From contig OZ244193.1 of assembly GCA_965216715.1 (NCBI GenBank), positions 1,119,977 to 1,183,976 on the forward strand: 64,000 bases of DNA. The letters run 5' to 3'. The DNA is from an uncultured Pseudohongiella sp. (GTDB lineage Bacteria; Pseudomonadota; Gammaproteobacteria; Pseudomonadales; Pseudohongiellaceae). This document shows positions 39,683 to 46,129 of the stretch, piece by piece (position 1 is the first letter of the stretch; each line of letters starts with the position of its first letter). The notes under the pieces are model-generated. The model made no database searches, was not told the origin of the DNA, and saw only the letters and a program-made list of their open reading frames with translations. A program made the position numbers and the translations under genes.

Positions 39683-39839
39683 TAAGCCAGGCAGGCAGCC
39701 AGGCTGACTGATAGCCGCTGCCAGTCATAGCGCTTGCAGCGGTCAAAGTAGAGCGTTTCTGGCAAAAAGCGCTAACTGGTTGATCTGGCTTGGTTTTGCT
39801 GGATATACGCTGAAGACCCCATAAATCCATCCATTCCGC

Positions 39840-39869
39840 TATTTCCGGTAATAAAGATTACCGGAAATA
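39840..39869. repeat. Perfect 30-bp palindrome TATTTCCGGTAAT-AAAG-ATTACCGGAAATA
   Basis: 13-bp arms are read directly from the sequence. It can also be read as 11-bp arms around an 8-bp centre. No U-run follows, so it is not a classic terminator. Confidence 0.6.
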
Positions 39870-40400
39870 ACATAATAACTGTGCACGGCCCCATTCCTGG
39901 CTAATGCTGTAAGGCTCAATTTGCGCGATGGCATTAATAACGGCTATTCGTCACACCCAGTCCCATTGTCCCCAAGCCGCCGGTAATGCCTTGATCGCAA
40001 TCGTCTGACTACAACTGGGTAGGGACTGCGCCGTATCACCCTGCCGGCTGCCTTTCATGGTGATCAAGCAGGAGCTGATCTTGAGGTGCCAGATAAGGGT
40101 CTGGCTCACGATCAGGACAACCGCCACAAGCTCCTCAGTGAATATGGTCTGCGCAGAGACAGTCCCGCACTATTCCTCACACCCTGACTGCAGCCAGCTT
40201 AGGTAAAGATATCCCTGGTCAGCGCCAGGCGCCTCAAGCAAGCCTGGCTCAACGGGCCCGCTCGCAGTGCCGCCAATCAAGCCAATCTCTGGGTGCTATC
40301 AGGCAGCCATTCCTGGATCGTACCGCGCCGTGCATCAGCTGCTGGTCACTGCATCCTCAAACACATCATGAACTTCAGGTATAGTCATAATAAAAACTGA

Positions 40401-40438
40401 TATCTATATGATTTAATTATCTATATATAGTTTATCTA
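40401..40438. repeat. AT-rich block with three direct TATCTA(TAT) repeats
   Basis: TATCTATAT occurs at 40401 and 40418, and TATCTA at 40433, inside a roughly 60-bp AT-rich island (40381-40441). Function unknown. Confidence 0.4.
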
Positions 40439-40665
40439 AAAGCTGGAGAGCATAGCTTTAAGCCTCAAACAGGGGGCCTGGCCAGCGACCCGGTCATGGA
40501 CAGGCGATCAGCCCGGCAGGCCCGAAGCCAGTGTTTACGTGCCCTGAGCGCCATATATCAACCTTGGGCAGCAGGAATAAAACAGTGGTAAAGATAACTC
40601 TCAATTGACCGAAATATTTACTAAGGCCCTGCTTCAGGTCGCCATCCAGGCGCACTAGAATCTGC

Positions 40666-40685
40666 CCGGTAAAAATTATTTTACC
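40666..40685. promoter_or_regulatory. Imperfect palindrome CCGGTAAAA-ATTA-TTTTACCtc, 30 bp upstream of the recombinase start
   Basis: It shares the CCGGTAA half-site with the 39840 palindrome. It lies just downstream of a TAGAAT hexamer (40656-40661). Confidence 0.4.
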
Positions 40686-40714
40686 TCAGGTCAGATAGTT
40701 GTATTCTAAACTTC

Positions 40715-41929
40715 ATGTCCTCTCCCAAGAACGCAGCAAGCTCGCCCCTGGCCTTCTTCGACACCCTCGAAGCCATGCCCAATCCTTTCAAGCAGCCGGT
40801 GACCTCACTGGAGCATCTGGTCAGTGACGCCCCGGCCGATGCCATCAAGGACTACCAGTTTGCCAGCGAGTTTATCTACAGCTACCGCGGCAGCCCTGAC
40901 ACCTTCAGTACCTACCGCCGGGAAATCGAGCATTTCCTGCACTGGTGCTGGCTGATTGCCGACAAGTCCCTGGCAGCGGTGGAACGGGAGGATATTGAAA
41001 CCTATGTGGAATTCTCCCGTCAGCCTCCCCAGAGCTGGATTGGCGAACACAATGTGCCCCGCTTTATCGAGCGCGGCGGCAAGCGTCTGCCCAATAGCGA
41101 CTGGCGCCCCTATGTCAGCAAACGCGGTGAGTATGTGCTGTCCCAGTCCGCCATCCAATCCTTATTCAGCGTATTAAGTAGTTTCTTTAACTTTCTGATT
41201 CAGGAGAACTATTTATCCGCCAATCCGGTCTCGCAGATGCGTCAGAAAAGCAAATTTCTGCGCAAGCACCAGTCCCAGGGCAAGATTCGCCGGCTCTCAC
41301 CTTTGCAATGGGATACCGTAATCGAGACCGCCGAGGACATGGCCCGACAGGACCCGGCCAGGCATGAGCGCACCCTGTTTGTGATGAACGCCCTGTTCGC
41401 CATGTATCTGCGTATCTCGGAACTGGTGGAAACACCCCGCTGGCAACCGCAAATGGGTCATTTTCAGGTGGATCAGGAAGGCAACTGGTGGTTCGTCACC
41501 GTCGGCAAGGGCAACAAGGAACGGGAAATCTCGGTCAGCGACGCCATGCTGGAAGCCCTCAAGCGCTACCGGCGCTCCCGGGGCCTGCCATCCCTGCCCA
41601 GCCCCGGCGAGCCCAGCCCCCTGATTCACAAGACCCGCGGCAAAGGCGGCATCACCAGTACCCGCCAGATTCGCGGCATCGTGCAGAAATGCTTCGATCT
41701 GGCGGCGGAAAAAATGCGTAAGGAAGGCTTTGAAGAGGAAGCGCAGCGCCTGGGTGACGCCACGGTACATTGGCTCCGTCACACCGGCATCTCGGAAGAT
41801 GTTAAGCATCGGCCTCGGGAACACGTAAGAGATGATGCCGGTCATGGTTCCAGCGCCATTACCGATCGCTACATCGACGTCGAACGCGCCGAGCGTCATG
41901 CTTCCGCGCGCAACAAACTGATACGCTGA
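40715..41929 (+). CDS. Tyrosine-type site-specific recombinase/integrase (catalytic residues intact)
   Basis: 404 aa. It has an N-terminal SAM-like core-binding region (YRREIEHFLHWCW). The catalytic set is Arg in MYLRISE, the beta-hairpin Lys in GKGNKER, HWLRHT, and GHGSSAITDRY (His plus the Tyr nucleophile). No obvious Shine-Dalgarno sequence. Confidence 0.85.
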   Translation: MSSPKNAASSPLAFFDTLEAMPNPFKQPVTSLEHLVSDAPADAIKDYQFASEFIYSYRGSPDTFSTYRREIEHFLHWCWLIADKSLAAVEREDIETYVEFSRQPPQSWIGEHNVPRFIERGGKRLPNSDWRPYVSKRGEYVLSQSAIQSLFSVLSSFFNFLIQENYLSANPVSQMRQKSKFLRKHQSQGKIRRLSPLQWDTVIETAEDMARQDPARHERTLFVMNALFAMYLRISELVETPRWQPQMGHFQVDQEGNWWFVTVGKGNKEREISVSDAMLEALKRYRRSRGLPSLPSPGEPSPLIHKTRGKGGITSTRQIRGIVQKCFDLAAEKMRKEGFEEEAQRLGDATVHWLRHTGISEDVKHRPREHVRDDAGHGSSAITDRYIDVERAERHASARNKLIR

Positions 41930-42121: not shown

Positions 42122-44356
42122 ATGCGAATCTGGAACAAGACGCCTGCATTGACTAAAGGCTTTCAAGCCATCGCCCTGCTCGGCTTCAGCGGCCTGGCCA
42201 ACCCCCTCCTTGCCCAGGACGACCCCACTCAGCTCAACACCGTCCTCAATATCGACAGCCTTTACACCCCGGTAGTCAGTGAGGAGATCCACGGCATTAC
42301 CGCCGCCGAGCTGATTGAGGAATTGCAGAACAAACACTACGCAGCAGTTGAGGTAAATGATAACTTTTCCTCGCAACTGTTTGACGCCTATATGGATTTG
42401 CTTGATGGACAGCATCTGTATTTTCTGCAGTCTGACATCGAACAACTGAGCCATCTGCGCTACACCCTCGATGACAGCCTCAAGGCTGGCGATGTTGAGC
42501 CAGGCTTTGAAATCTACAATCTCTACTACAAGCGCATCCTCGAGCGGCTTATCTATGCCATTAACCGGGTTGAGAACGATATCCCCAATATGGATTTCAG
42601 TGTCGATGAAACCATCGATATCGACCGGGAAGACGCCCCCTATGCCAGCAACCAGGAAGAACTGGATGAGATCTGGCGCAAGCGCATCAAGAACAGCGTA
42701 CTGAGCCTGCGTCTGGCCGGTGATGACAATGAAGAGATCAAGGAAAAACTCAGCAAGCGTTACCGCAACCAGCTGAGCCAGGTGCTCAAGACCAACAGCA
42801 AGGATATTTTCCAGTCCTATCTGTCCTCGGTCGCCAAGGCAGTGGATCCCCACACGGATTACTACTCGCCCCGGGATTCCGAAAATTTCAACATGCAGCT
42901 GTCCCTGTCACTCCAGGGTATCGGTGCCCAGCTTACTACCGAAGACGAATACACCAAGGTAGTTGAGCTCATCAAGGGCGGCCCGGCCGAGCGCGGCAGC
43001 GAGCTGCGTGCCGGTGACCGCATTATTGGCATCGGCCAGGGTGTGGATGGCGAGATTCAGGATGTGGTCGGCATGCGCCTGGATGACGTGGTGGACCAGA
43101 TCCGCGGTGAGAAAGGCACTGTGGTGCGTCTCAATGTCATTCCTGCTGACGCCGTCAGCGAGTCGGCAGCCACGGTAGTGTCCATTACCCGCGATACCGT
43201 CAAGCTGGAAGACCAGTCTGCCAAGAGCGAAGTACTGGAGCTCAGCTACAATGGCCAGGACTACAAGATCGGCGTCATCAATCTGCCCACTTTCTATTTT
43301 GATTTCGAAGCGGCTTCCCGCGGCGACGAAGACTACAAGAGCTCCACCCGAGACGTTCGTGCCCTGCTGGAAGAACTGAAGGCTGAACAGGTGGATGCGG
43401 TGGTCATGGACCTGAGAAACAACGGCGGTGGCAGCCTCTCGGAAGCCAATCAGCTGGTGGGCCTGTTTATTGAAACCGGCGCCACAGTGCAGATTCGTTA
43501 TTCCGGCATTCGCAACGGCTTCACCCGTTCCTTCGGCGACAATGACCCGGAGGTGGCCTACTCCGGCCCCCTGGCGGTGCTGGTTAATCGTACCAGTGCC
43601 TCGGCCTCGGAGATTTTCGCCGGCGCCATTCAGGACTATCAGCGCGGCATCGTGCTGGGCGGTCAGACCTTTGGCAAGGGCACGGTGCAGGAAATCATTC
43701 CCATGGACTATGGCCAGGTGAAAGTAACCCGCTCCAAGTTCTATCGTATTTCCGGCGCCAGTACCCAGCACCGTGGCGTGATTCCGGATATCACTTTCCC
43801 GGATATCTATGACGCCTACGAAGACATCGGCGAAAGCAGCCTGGATGGTGCCTTGCCCTGGGATACCGTGCGCCCGGTTGAATACCGCCCCTATCACTCC
43901 ATTCAGGCTCTGCTGCCTGAGCTGCGGGAGCGATTCGAGGCCCGCGCCGCGCACTCGCCGGACTTCATCTATATGGAAGACCAGATCGAGCGCACCCGAC
44001 GTGGCCTGGAACGGGAGCGCATTTCCCTCAATGAAGAACAGGTGAAAGCCCGCCGTGAACGTGAACGCCGGGAAGAATTCGACGCTGAAAACATGCGTCG
44101 CTTCCTCAAGGGTCTGCCACTGCGCGAATGGATCGCCGCAGACGACCTGGACAATGAGGATGAAGAAGCCCCTGTAACCCCTGCCAATGACGACAGCTCC
44201 CTGGCAGCGGACGACAGCACAGCGGACAACAGCGAAGAGGAAGAAGAAGCTGATCCCATGCTGCTGGAAAGCGGTCGCATTTTGGCCGACTTCATGAGCC
44301 TGAACGAGCCCCGCCTGTCACGCCTGGACAACCTGCCTGAACAGCGACGTCAGTAG
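42122..44356 (+). CDS. prc: Tail-specific (C-terminal processing) protease, S41 family
   Basis: 744 aa. It has a signal peptide, a PDZ domain (GDRIIGIGQG), an S41 core (NNGGGSL, SASASEIFAGA, GKGTVQ), and a long acidic C-terminal extension. Confidence 0.9.
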   Translation: MRIWNKTPALTKGFQAIALLGFSGLANPLLAQDDPTQLNTVLNIDSLYTPVVSEEIHGITAAELIEELQNKHYAAVEVNDNFSSQLFDAYMDLLDGQHLYFLQSDIEQLSHLRYTLDDSLKAGDVEPGFEIYNLYYKRILERLIYAINRVENDIPNMDFSVDETIDIDREDAPYASNQEELDEIWRKRIKNSVLSLRLAGDDNEEIKEKLSKRYRNQLSQVLKTNSKDIFQSYLSSVAKAVDPHTDYYSPRDSENFNMQLSLSLQGIGAQLTTEDEYTKVVELIKGGPAERGSELRAGDRIIGIGQGVDGEIQDVVGMRLDDVVDQIRGEKGTVVRLNVIPADAVSESAATVVSITRDTVKLEDQSAKSEVLELSYNGQDYKIGVINLPTFYFDFEAASRGDEDYKSSTRDVRALLEELKAEQVDAVVMDLRNNGGGSLSEANQLVGLFIETGATVQIRYSGIRNGFTRSFGDNDPEVAYSGPLAVLVNRTSASASEIFAGAIQDYQRGIVLGGQTFGKGTVQEIIPMDYGQVKVTRSKFYRISGASTQHRGVIPDITFPDIYDAYEDIGESSLDGALPWDTVRPVEYRPYHSIQALLPELRERFEARAAHSPDFIYMEDQIERTRRGLERERISLNEEQVKARRERERREEFDAENMRRFLKGLPLREWIAADDLDNEDEEAPVTPANDDSSLAADDSTADNSEEEEEADPMLLESGRILADFMSLNEPRLSRLDNLPEQRRQ

Positions 44357-44378
44357 TCGCCTCCTGCGCTGACCCCGC

Positions 44379-44410
44379 AAAAAAAATGGCCCTCGGGGGA
44401 TGAGGGCCAT
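44379..44410 (-). terminator. Intrinsic terminator oriented for minus-strand transcripts coming from serT
   Basis: On the minus strand, ATGGCCCT-CATCCCCCG-AGGGCCAT is followed by an 8-U run (plus-strand A-run 44379-44386). On the plus strand the same hairpin follows prc but has no U-run. Confidence 0.65.
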
Positions 44411-44574
44411 CAAGCGGGGTCAAGCTCTAGGAGGGTCAATCAATTTGAAGTTGATTGAAACTCCATTTCATTACAGCAAAAGAATCTGACAAGCCTAGTG
44501 GGGAATTGGGGCTATGTGGGGGTTAATTGTGGCTGGATTGTGGCTTGGGGTGTGCTGGGGTTTGCATACTCAGC

Positions 44575-45110
44575 ATTTTTCTTTGGGATTGAGTCGTAGC
44601 CTCGGTAGTGCTCGGGGTTAGCAGCCTGCGGCTGCCGGGGGAGAGATTGATTCGCTATTTGGCTGAGCCAAATAGCTCACCCTTTCAGGGCGGCGCTATG
44701 CGCCGTCTGCGCCGCTTCGCGGCTTTGATTCGAAATTTGGCTGAGCCAAATTTCTCACTCCTTTGGGGCAGCCTTCGGCTGTCTGCGCTGCTGACGCAGC
44801 TTTCGAACTGGAGAGTTCTCACTACTCCCCCTCCGCCTTTTGGGCGTGCGGGGTGTTACTTACGGAGTACTTTTCTTTGGGCTTGAGTCGTAGCTTGGGT
44901 GGTGCTCGGGGTTAGCAGCCTTCGGCTGCTGGGGGAGAGATTGATTCGCTATTTGGCTGAGCCAAATAGCTCACCCCTTCGGGGCGGCGCTTTGCGCCGT
45001 CTGCGCCGCTGGCGCGGCTTTCGAACTGCGAGAGTTCTCTTACTCTCCCCCTCCGCCTTATGGGCGTGCAGGGTGTTGCTTACGGAGTACTTTTCTTGTT
45101 GTGTGGCAGG
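44575..45110. repeat. Tandem hairpin-rich repeat units carrying degenerate tRNA-Ser 3'-end fragments
   Basis: Units start at about 44575 and about 44868, with a truncated third at about 45088. Unit 1 carries an extra roughly 85-bp internal module. Details are in the findings. Confidence 0.75.
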
Positions 45111-45125
45111 GTATAGACAGGAGAA

Positions 45126-45215
45126 TGGCGGAGGGGGAGAGATTCGAACTCTCGGAAGACTTTCGCCTTCGCTGGTTTTCAAGACCAGTGCATTCAACCG
45201 CTCTGCCACCCCTCC
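45126..45215 (-). tRNA. serT: tRNA-Ser (anticodon UGA)
   Basis: 90 nt with encoded CCA. The acceptor is GGAGGGG/CCCCTCC, the anticodon loop CUUGAAA, there is a long variable arm, and the T-arm is GAGAGTTCGAATCTCTC. Confidence 0.93.
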
Positions 45216-45422
45216 GCGACAGGGGCAGAATCTTACACTAATCGGGGCCTTAGTCCAATGCGTCAAAGCGACAAATGATGGCTATTGGTTCGGCCGAAAT
45301 TGATTGATTTTGTGGGGCGCCCCGGTATCATAATTGCTTGATATTTGAAGTTTTGTTGGGTTTTTTGTGAGATTAGGAACATTGAAATTCCGGTCATTTG
45401 CCCCCAAATCTTTAAATGTGAG

Positions 45423-45450
45423 CCGGGGCGCGTCCCCGACCCTGTTTTTT
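45423..45450 (+). terminator. Terminator- or attenuator-like hairpin plus T-run just upstream of yccA
   Basis: CGGGG-CGCGT-CCCCG is followed by ACCCTGTTTTTT and ends 16 nt before the yccA ATG. Confidence 0.4.
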
Positions 45451-45466
45451 ACTGCTGGAGAAATCG

Positions 45467-46129
45467 ATGAACGAAGTCAATGTGAGTGTAGCCCACGGCC
45501 AACAATCGGCTGTGGAGGTCAACAAGGTACTGAAAAATACCTATCTGCTGTTAGCCTTGACGCTCGCTTTCAGTGCGTTTACTGCCATGCTGAGCTTCAA
45601 CGCCCGACCGGTGGGCCTGTTGCCCATGATCATCGGCTTTTATGGCCTGTTGTTCCTGACCCACAAACTGGCCAATAGCGCCTGGGGTCTGCTCAGTGTG
45701 TTCGCCTTCACCGGTTTTATCGGCTATACCCTGGGCCCGGTAATCTCTGCCATTCTGTCCTTCCCTGGCGGTAGTGAGATTGTGGCCAAGGCGCTGGGTG
45801 GTACTGCCTTTATCTTCTTTGGCCTGTCAGGTTATGCCCTGGTCTCGCGCAAGGATTTTTCCTTCCTGAGCGGCTTCCTGTTTGCCGGTTTTCTGGTATT
45901 GCTGGCTGCCATCGTTATCCAGATCTTCTGGCCTATGCCGGCACTGCAACTGGCGCTGTCAGTTGGCTTTATCCTGTTCTCCAGTGCCGCCATTCTGTTC
46001 CAGACCAGCGAAATTGTTCGCGGTGGCGAGCGCAACTACATCCTGGCGACAGTGACCCTGTTCGTCTCGCTGTATAATATATTTATCAGCCTGGTTCACT
46101 TGCTCATGGCTTTTGCCGGCGACGAGTAA
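45467..46129 (+). CDS. yccA: BAX inhibitor-1/YccA family membrane protein
   Basis: 220 aa with seven TM segments. The N-terminal NKVLKNTYLLLALTL and the C-terminal FISLVHLLMAF are typical of the family. Confidence 0.85.
   Translation: MNEVNVSVAHGQQSAVEVNKVLKNTYLLLALTLAFSAFTAMLSFNARPVGLLPMIIGFYGLLFLTHKLANSAWGLLSVFAFTGFIGYTLGPVISAILSFPGGSEIVAKALGGTAFIFFGLSGYALVSRKDFSFLSGFLFAGFLVLLAAIVIQIFWPMPALQLALSVGFILFSSAAILFQTSEIVRGGERNYILATVTLFVSLYNIFISLVHLLMAFAGDE

Follow-up and report, generated by a model that had tools for sequence, protein, structure and literature searches.

The 64-kb stretch of DNA analysed here as a whole (the window), from an uncultured Pseudohongiella sp., carries on its minus strand the transfer RNA (tRNA) gene serT for tRNA-Ser(UGA) (45126-45215; ARAGORN; 59.5 bits with the Rfam tRNA model; CCA encoded; T-loop GTTCGAATC). 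Between serT and the terminator downstream lies an array of two tandem units of 294 and 220 nucleotides (nt) and a 39-nt partial third, in which a structured module is framed by opposed copies of the serT 3' end. With a probability of about 0.7, we read this interval as an array of units of the class known from Escherichia coli as tRNA-linked repeats (TLRs), belonging to a new sequence family, carried as a passenger of serT and probably transcribed as its trailer. The gene is flanked by the convergent prc (42122-44356, plus strand) and the divergent yccA (45467-46129, plus strand), the latter followed by tusBCD/dsrC-like genes. A terminator scan of positions 44200-45500 found a sole terminator-like site on the minus strand, an intrinsic terminator made of a 10-bp hairpin (44411-44385) and a subsequent T run (together 44379-44411), 23 nt past the stop codon of prc, and nothing terminator-like between serT and 44411; a preliminary description of the locus, made from the letters alone, had claimed that serT lacks a terminator before about 44379, and this holds. 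The 714 nt from serT to the terminator (44412-45125) are made up of a unique 28-nt spacer directly after the CCA (45098-45125, minus strand; without a terminator in the same scan), the partial unit, unit 2, unit 1 and a unique distal spacer (44412-44544, minus strand), which has the same sequence in the related strains L001, L002 and L016.

The serT array and its units

A repeat search revealed the two periods of the array: positions 44545-44716 are 88% identical to 44839-45010 across 172 nt at a spacing of 294 nt, and positions 44825-44877 are 94% identical to 45045-45097 at a spacing of 220 nt. We accordingly distinguish unit 1 (44545-44838, 294 nt), unit 2 (44839-45058, 220 nt) and the partial third unit (45059-45097, 39 nt), a 94% identical copy of the inter-unit spacer segment 44839-44877; all of them are read on the minus strand. 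Tandem Repeats Finder did not report the array because its units differ by an indel, unit 1 being longer since a 78-nt segment is duplicated head to tail within it (44645-44722 and 44723-44808). Two tandem units and a truncated third had been recognised in the preliminary description, whose starts (about 44575, 44868 and 45088) follow the same periodicity in a slightly different register, and the extra internal module that it assigned to unit 1 is present, albeit with a size of 78 nt instead of about 85.

Read in the direction of serT, the parts of a unit follow each other in the order spacer, antisense arm (the final 13-28 nt of tRNA-Ser), turn, T-loop 5' half, module or modules, T-loop 3' half and direct arm, i.e. 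the tRNA end in gene orientation. The antisense arm reads GGCGGAGGGGGAGAG-TAAGAGA-ACTCTC. In unit 2 it is seen on the plus strand (45030-45057) as an inverted copy of the 28 nt at the serT 3' end, comprising the T-arm with an altered T-loop (TTCTCTTA) and the acceptor 3' strand, so that the minus strand is antisense to the tRNA 3' end; its counterpart in unit 1 (GAGAGTTCTCACTACTCCCCCTCCGCC, 44811 to 44837 or 44840, plus strand) is 80% complementary to 45124-45153. The turn is a sharp GC inside the T-stem (GAACTCTC-GC-AGTTC), and the T-loop 5' half reads GTTCGA or AGTTCGA. Units end in CGAATC|AATCTCTCCCCC, i.e. in the T-loop 3' half joined to a direct copy of tRNA positions of about 58-69. In unit 2 this direct copy (44931-44942, minus strand; GGGGGAGAGATT on the plus strand, AATCTCTCCCCC on the minus strand) is identical to the gene at 12/12 positions, and in unit 1 the repeat search placed 12 nt of the serT 3' end at 44637-44648 (minus strand); GGGGGAGAGATT is found exactly at three places, namely at 44637, at 44931 and inside the gene at 45133. 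The spacers on the minus strand span 44839-44930 in unit 2 (repeat search and fold; including the hairpin GCAGCCTTCGGCTGC, 44915-44929) and 44545-44636 in unit 1 (repeat search; with the hairpin AGCAGCCTGCGGCTGC, 44620-44635).

The module itself, present in one or two copies per unit, is about 84 nt long and folds into four short G+C-rich hairpins. We described it with a covariance model, R1 (85 positions, 27 pairs; built in plus orientation), which scores 98.1 bits (E 2e-25) for the module of unit 2 (44939-45026, minus strand; the match is reported on the plus strand), 97.9 bits for module 1b of unit 1 (44723-44808, minus strand) and 60.9 bits for the extra module 1a (44645-44722, minus strand), the 78-nt sub-repeat that adjoins 1b head to tail at GCTTT|GATTCG. 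The borders of the unit-2 module, GATT|GATTCG and T|TCGAAC, correspond to an insertion at T-loop position 58/59 of the direct copy; in terms of the true T-loop GTTCGAATC, the module is placed between A58 and A59, with one or two bases being ambiguous.

The two tRNA-derived arms of a unit pair with each other (GGGGGAGAG with CUCUCCCCC) and thereby close the module into a compact domain: the minus-strand fold of a unit (z = -4.1) shows a 9-bp arm-arm stem around the four hairpins together with a small hairpin at the turn. Both the opposed copies of the serT 3' end in each unit and their pairing around four short hairpins had been pointed out in the preliminary description; the motifs it quoted are all in place, and they are not reproduced in shuffled sequence (2 to 6 occurrences of the diagnostic motifs observed; 0 to 0.4 expected). 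As a separate observation, the proximal antisense arm can pair at 15/15 positions (45043-45057 with 45127-45141) with the genuine 3' end of serT, located 69 nt upstream, and in a read-through transcript this pairing would be predicted to compete with the folding of the acceptor stem.

A module family linked to tRNA genes

When species-representative genomes (a single scan of one genome collection) were searched with a serT-specific 18-mer, the only match was the orthologous serT locus of one Pseudomonadales metagenome-assembled genome. The pattern of the first hairpin, which is devoid of tRNA sequence, retrieved 57 loci from metagenome contigs; for about half of them ARAGORN predicted a tRNA 100-250 nt away, the module lying on the tRNA 3' side in one relative orientation with few exceptions. 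The covariance-model search that had been proposed beforehand yielded 98 modules from 63 sources, 28 of them at contig ends. Among the 70 copies away from contig edges, 44 are found 48-750 nt 3' of an intact tRNA in fixed orientation, and the inspected cases of the other 26 lie inside islands or disrupted tRNA copies. Three R1 modules were found in the 64-kb window, every one within the array and none outside of it.

The preliminary description had treated the element as particular to serT, which is not borne out: in many marine contigs the module follows at least nine tRNA species, i.e. Ser-UGA, Ser-GGA, Ser-GCU, Arg-UCG, Arg-ACG, Arg-CCU, Arg-UCU, Lys-UUU and Gln-CUG. The T-loop GTTCGAATC is common to all host tRNAs; tRNAs with the T-loops GTTCGATTC, GATCC or GAGCC, including the tRNA-Ala of the window, have neither module nor inverted arm, and one tRNA-Pro (L068) with the T-loop GTTCGAATC is without a module, too. 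A family scattered over dozens of unrelated intergenic sites, as in repetitive extragenic palindromic (REP) sequences or miniature inverted-repeat transposable elements (MITEs), had been considered as an alternative; the loci are indeed many, which in spirit is the outcome that was to refute the trailer reading, but the copies in the metagenomes are linked to tRNAs instead of being spread over unrelated sites, and within the 64 kb there is no copy outside the array, so that a REP-, REPIN- or MITE-type element is disfavoured.

The arms of the units follow their host. For the Arg, Gln, Lys and three Ser tRNAs, the direct and inverted arms fit the local tRNA and no other. Even between orthologous serT loci the arms track local substitutions (e.g. 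CTCCCCCTCCGC in the window and CTCCTCCTCCGC in both gene and arm of L079, whose YccA is 82% identical), and in the Pseudohongiella-like locus L083 a CAGGG/CCCTG T-stem is found in the gene and in both arms. The direct copy is complete (19/19) in sibling units of the module family, e.g. in L047, L052, L031 and L045, among them units at Arg and Gln tRNAs. In some old copies, e.g. L025, the arms have decayed past pairing; arm pairing is therefore not maintained everywhere.

We examined covariation in a model-guided alignment of 86 distinct module copies: 94.4% of the cells form standard pairs, 22/27 pairs are altered on both sides (in 252 cells), and none of 500 shuffles (0/500) reached any of the observed covariation measures; when partners were slid against each other as a control, pairing dropped to 29-48%. 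The sequence of hairpins 3 and 4 is hardly constrained, and still they always pair. These results support the conclusion that the module core must fold and that its structure is under selection. Nearly all loops are triloops closed by C-G, reading GAA, GCA, GTA or GGA on the tRNA-sense strand; GNA triloops (DNA-type) are unusually stable. A case for the plus strand based on UNCG tetraloops was discarded, since that register breaks the stems of hairpins 3 and 4 and the loops are triloops. Some serT-type modules contain a second insert of about 60 nt (…GGGCATTCTTT..GGAATCGAGGTTTAAACG..), nested between hairpins 1 and 2 (L001 3650-3725 and 3790-3865; L016 7020-7095; L026 about 290-365), which is not present in the three modules of the window.

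The number of units is variable. As had been suggested, we compared the orthologous serT spacers, and the window and L016 have 2 full serT units; by anchor counts L002 has about 3 and L001 about 4, each in addition to remnants, so that near-identical strains differ between 2 and about 4. Two adjoining units of L001 are identical and hence point to a recent tandem duplication, and in L081, a relative at 74% YccA identity, serT has no unit at all and thus does not need the array. At tRNA-Arg(UCG), the loci L069 and L073 equal the arrangement of L033/L064 plus one extra tRNA-proximal unit, which comes with a different terminator and has a perfect 19-nt repeat (AATCTCTCCGGGTGCGCCA) at its borders; this extra unit recurs in L040 and L072, before yet another native terminator. 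In addition, the module is found by itself as an insertion into tRNA-Arg copies that are otherwise complete, have a promoter and lie 5' of an intact copy (L047, L054), and into a tRNA copy of L061, in each case within the T-loop. Taken together, these data support the view of the array as a passenger linked to a tRNA, with gain, loss and amplification of its units taking place at the DNA level.

Some of these loci deserve a closer description. On the minus strand of L047 (1160-1560), two tandem promoter-bearing tRNA-Arg(UCG) copies 5' of the intact copy each contain the module at 58/59; the acceptor 3' strands of these interrupted copies pair at 6/7 positions and lack the CCA. In L054 (157-1029 and 1239-1608), a gene for an IntI-like integrase (C-terminus ...YTHVLGRHYAGTASPLD) adjoins two tandem tRNA-Arg(UCG) genes and faces away; the second of these tRNA copies is interrupted in its T-loop by a long version of the module, and its acceptor end is degenerate.

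Comparison with the tRNA-linked repeats of E. coli

The preliminary description had compared the array with the rtT repeats of the E. coli tyrT operon, and this analogy turned out to be correct, the named class being that of the TLRs (PMC8144298). TLRs were first described at tyrT in 1978 (Egan and Landy 1978; also Rudd 1999; both as cited in PMC8144298). E. coli has 22 copies at ten loci, with one to five copies per locus, and the final 18-19 bp of every copy are identical to the 3' terminus of the tRNA or rRNA that precedes it; the 19 TLRs in tRNA operons have no known function, and the three linked to 5S rRNA, RrA, RrB and RrF, are expressed small RNAs that bind Hfq and CsrA (PMC8144298). 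The window array resembles the E. coli TLRs in lying directly 3' of a tRNA (it starts 28 nt past the CCA) in the same orientation, and its two full units and one partial unit, like the 2 to about 4 units of its relatives, are inside the range of 1-5 copies per locus.

The resemblance extends to the anatomy. The TLRs of E. coli tyrT/tyrV and argV/Y/Z/Q have the same foldback layout, with an antisense arm (GGGGAAGGAT..., GGCACCAGGGAGGAT), hairpins and a 19-nt direct copy that starts in the T-loop; folded with RNAfold, they form an arm-arm stem, of 10 bp in the tyrT units (178-bp repeats), around 3-4 short hairpins with GAA or GCA loops. A 13-nt motif, CCCGAAGGG(T/C)GAG, is common to the E. coli TLRs and the marine module and is found at the same relative place, in the latter in hairpin 2 and the TGAG linker. 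The foldback anatomy as a criterion is our own reading of the E. coli loci and not a published definition; we did not find the antisense copy of the tRNA 3' end in the E. coli TLRs (L076, tyrT; L078, argVYZQ), or its pairing with the 19-nt direct copy, stated in PMC8144298. The marine core differs from the E. coli TLRs in its longer four-hairpin module with a 9-11-bp ATTTGGCTNAGCCAAAT hairpin, and serT of E. coli K-12 has an ordinary terminator and no TLR. In our reading, the module family behind serT is a previously undescribed marine family within the known TLR class; searching the literature for the motif sequence or with descriptive terms returned nothing on it.

As to how such an array arises and what becomes of it, we propose that the family spreads or regenerates at T-loops of the GTTCGAATC type, that local amplification would then proceed by recombination between the repeated units, and that most likely transcription of serT continues into the array, giving a structured trailer that is cut at the pseudo-tRNA ends. 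Such a trailer is most likely because there is no terminator between serT and the array and because read-through and processing give rise to the TLR RNAs of E. coli (rtT, RrA/B/F).

Several observations weigh against this reading. The direct copy in the window is identical to the tRNA over 12 nt only and then diverges, which falls short of the 18-19 bp by which the E. coli TLRs are defined; given the 19/19 copies of sibling units, the window units look like a decayed version. R1 recognises the E. coli TLRs weakly (15.3 bits, E 0.0017 on the TLR of the tyrT-tyrV spacer) and has no hit in the E. coli arg locus at E up to 1, and the Rfam model of rtT has no match at E up to 1 in 43500-46000. At Rfam gathering scores only the two tRNAs of the window were found; matches by E-value, such as AaHKsRNA22, YrlA and sX4, are at chance level, far under the gathering scores. 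Further, most non-serT loci have a terminator between tRNA and unit, so that co-transcription would require read-through there, and no enzyme able to move the units was found nearby (within several kb at 60 loci). Finally, the wobble test for the folding strand counted 54 A.C against 22 G.T on the plus strand, an excess that looked significant at first but is not robust when copies are de-replicated (21 against 16, then 16 against 14); since the excess fades, the strand call rests mainly on loop type, and on this ground and that of the E. coli precedent we favour the tRNA-sense strand as the one that probably folds.

TLRs are among the oldest unexplained bacterial repeats, and the literature we searched discusses them almost only for E. 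coli. With the family described here, the class would extend to marine Pseudohongiellaceae-like Gammaproteobacteria in the form of a large, covariation-rich family, which offers comparative leverage beyond the 22 copies of E. coli: a defined T-loop position at which the module is inserted, arms that follow the local tRNA, gains of whole units with foreign terminators and insertions of the module alone into spare tRNA copies. Whether TLRs originate as a mobile element, a by-product of replication or a processing signal thus becomes directly testable. Since cultured Pseudohongiella species have a diverged unit at serT (L083/L084), experiments are possible. On the practical side, the units break metagenome assemblies beside tRNA genes (contigs frequently end at them) and generate spurious open reading frames (ORFs).

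Possible origins of the units

A unit could be born along three routes: integration of a trans-mobilised DNA into the T-loop, fold-back replication at the hairpins of T-arm and terminator, and copying of the tRNA end mediated by single strands or RNA. In its strongest form, the first route would make every unit the product of a non-autonomous mobile DNA that targets tRNA T-loops, restores the tRNA end and depends for its movement on a recombinase or transposase encoded elsewhere and acting in trans, possibly on a folded single strand, as for integron attC sites, the attP of CTX phage and the ends of IS200/IS605 elements. This explanation, which partly overlaps with the passenger reading, is in our view less likely than not. 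It would account for the unit with a foreign terminator inserted at a tRNA between perfect 19-nt direct repeats, for the module alone within the T-loop of full tRNA copies, for the C-G-closed triloops (GAA/GCA/GTA/GGA on the tRNA-sense strand) and for the frequent breaks of contigs at the units, as expected of repeats; the junctions are also compatible with a crossover or duplication of 2 nt (TT), GAGAGA-TT-CGAACT vs GGCT-TT-GATTCG. Structure-conserved hairpins with compensatory change, inverted target-like arms and tandem arrays are likewise known from attC, CTX attP, REPINs and IS200/IS605, but here no IntI or cassettes adjoin, pairing stops at the crossover point, the units are strictly tRNA-linked and no RAYT or TnpA was seen. 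The missing mover at the 60 loci counts against a mobile element: clustering of 684 ORFs from 57 loci gave no recurrent transposase or recombinase, and the recurrent clusters are housekeeping or island genes only (HipA, HD, M48, PQQ, sigma factors). No copy of the module was found in phage, plasmid and IMG/VR collections, and a mobilome preprint on rttR does not provide evidence for DNA circles; double-stranded ones as small as about 80-200 bp would be unlikely on physical grounds. Moreover, the arms are cognate to nine tRNAs, so that an attachment site travelling with the element would presuppose nine co-adapted lineages with one near-identical core.

Particular mobilisers were considered and rejected. 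The gene of the tyrosine recombinase at 40715-41929 is conserved in synteny (with 94-100% identity in L001, L002, L016 and L060) and is not found near other units. An integron array does not fit, as this recombinase lies beyond prc and has a weak, generic Phage_integrase match, and as the module consists of four separate hairpins; an IntI-like gene is near units in one locus only (L054). The junctions fit neither the target logic of IS91 (GTTC) nor that of ISDra2 (TTGAT), and a CTX-like hairpin attP is at odds with an arm pairing that ends at the presumed crossover point and does not span it.

A related proposal, which we put forward tentatively and do not expect to be correct, is that TLRs are footprints of an unrecognised tRNA-directed element whose module of about 84 nt enters the T-loop at 58/59, the tRNA end being copied both ways. 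Position 58/59 would be the one place where the T-loop tolerates an insertion; from a single-stranded DNA or RNA intermediate, the last 19-28 nt of the host tRNA would be copied in both orientations, and an intact tRNA would be regenerated with the foldback left behind. If so, the 58/59 border and the antisense sequence would be signatures of synthesis templated or primed by the tRNA end and not relics.

An unlikely explanation, in line with the trailer reading of the preliminary description, is that the interval encodes a dedicated functional trailer RNA of serT. It would yield at least one stable small RNA, or else a structure that acts in cis on processing or regulation, and would either be needed by serT or act elsewhere, as proposed for rtT or RrB. 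The placement of the only terminator, a strong one, at the end of the array, the compact fold (z = -4.1) and the preservation of the hairpins by compensatory change are all what such an RNA would lead one to expect, and selection for mimicry of the tRNA end, or for pairing with the 3' end, could explain why the arms track the local tRNA. The expressed, Hfq- and CsrA-binding RrA/B/F (PMC8144298) provide a precedent, as they result from read-through from an upstream stable-RNA gene and end in a copy of its 3' end, a probable processing signal. However, they lie between two terminators behind 5S rRNA and contain GGA motifs bound by CsrA and Hfq, to which nothing comparable is evident in the window, and the 19 TLRs in E. 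coli tRNA operons lack a known function (PMC8144298). A function tied to serT is also hard to reconcile with the occurrence of the same module behind nine tRNA species, usually past a terminator, with 2 to about 4 full units between near-identical strains, with a relative whose serT has no unit and with arms that have decayed beyond pairing in copies such as L025.

Quite unlikely, too, is an origin by template switching during replication at the terminator and T-arm hairpins, which would produce a direct-inverted-direct triplication of the tRNA 3' end without any element-encoded mobility and in which the module would be a later occupant. The order of real 3' end, terminator, inverted copy, turn in the T-stem and direct copy is that expected of fold-back synthesis, and in the Arg, Ser-GGA and Lys loci the inverted copy abuts a bidirectional terminator; module-less tRNAs are also free of the inverted copy, from which it follows that the module and the inverted copy arise together. 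The terminators of new units differ from the resident one, though, so that these units were not formed in situ, a terminator hairpin is missing from the serT-type units at the point where the turn would be expected, and the constant presence of one conserved four-hairpin module would be left unexplained.

Stacked attachment-site scars of integrase-bearing islands using serT, an alternative raised in the preliminary description, are very improbable and already largely refuted: although islands classically target the 3' ends of tRNA genes, the small islands of L062 and L064 are flanked by genuine tRNA-Arg fragments of 45 nt and a tyrosine recombinase gene lies 3.2 kb off (40715-41929), scars would consist of direct repeats only, while each unit adds an inverted copy and a structured core common to unrelated tRNA loci, no cargo lies between the units and the recombinase is conserved, syntenic and absent beside other units. 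The units do share with tRNA-targeting islands and their cis-mobilizable derivatives the insertion at a tRNA 3' end that is restored, direct repeats and tandem pile-up, as in the gain of a unit with its own terminator and a 19-nt repeat; they differ from them in their size (about 170-300 nt), the lack of genes and of a linked integrase, the inverted copy that is always present and the one core for nine tRNAs.

The small islands at tRNA-Arg(UCG) (L062 111-2655; L064 2841-5950) are bounded by 45-nt tRNA fragments, each of which is followed by its own terminator and then by a TLR-type unit; one island encodes a Fic/DOC protein and the other an AAA plus TIR-domain protein together with an unknown ORF. 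HipA recurs nearby in seven loci. In the window, the recombinase gene (40715-41929, plus strand) encodes 404 amino acids (aa) immediately 5' of prc; the product is XerD-like according to some sources and has weak matches to Phage_integrase and SAM-like domain models, and no island borders were found around the gene. It is preceded by about 1 kb without an ORF of at least 60 aa (39683-40714), with an A+T-rich patch near 40380-40440. At the other side of prc, the acidic C-terminal tail of its product is encoded in part by a 15-nt tandem repeat of 1.9 copies (44205-44233).

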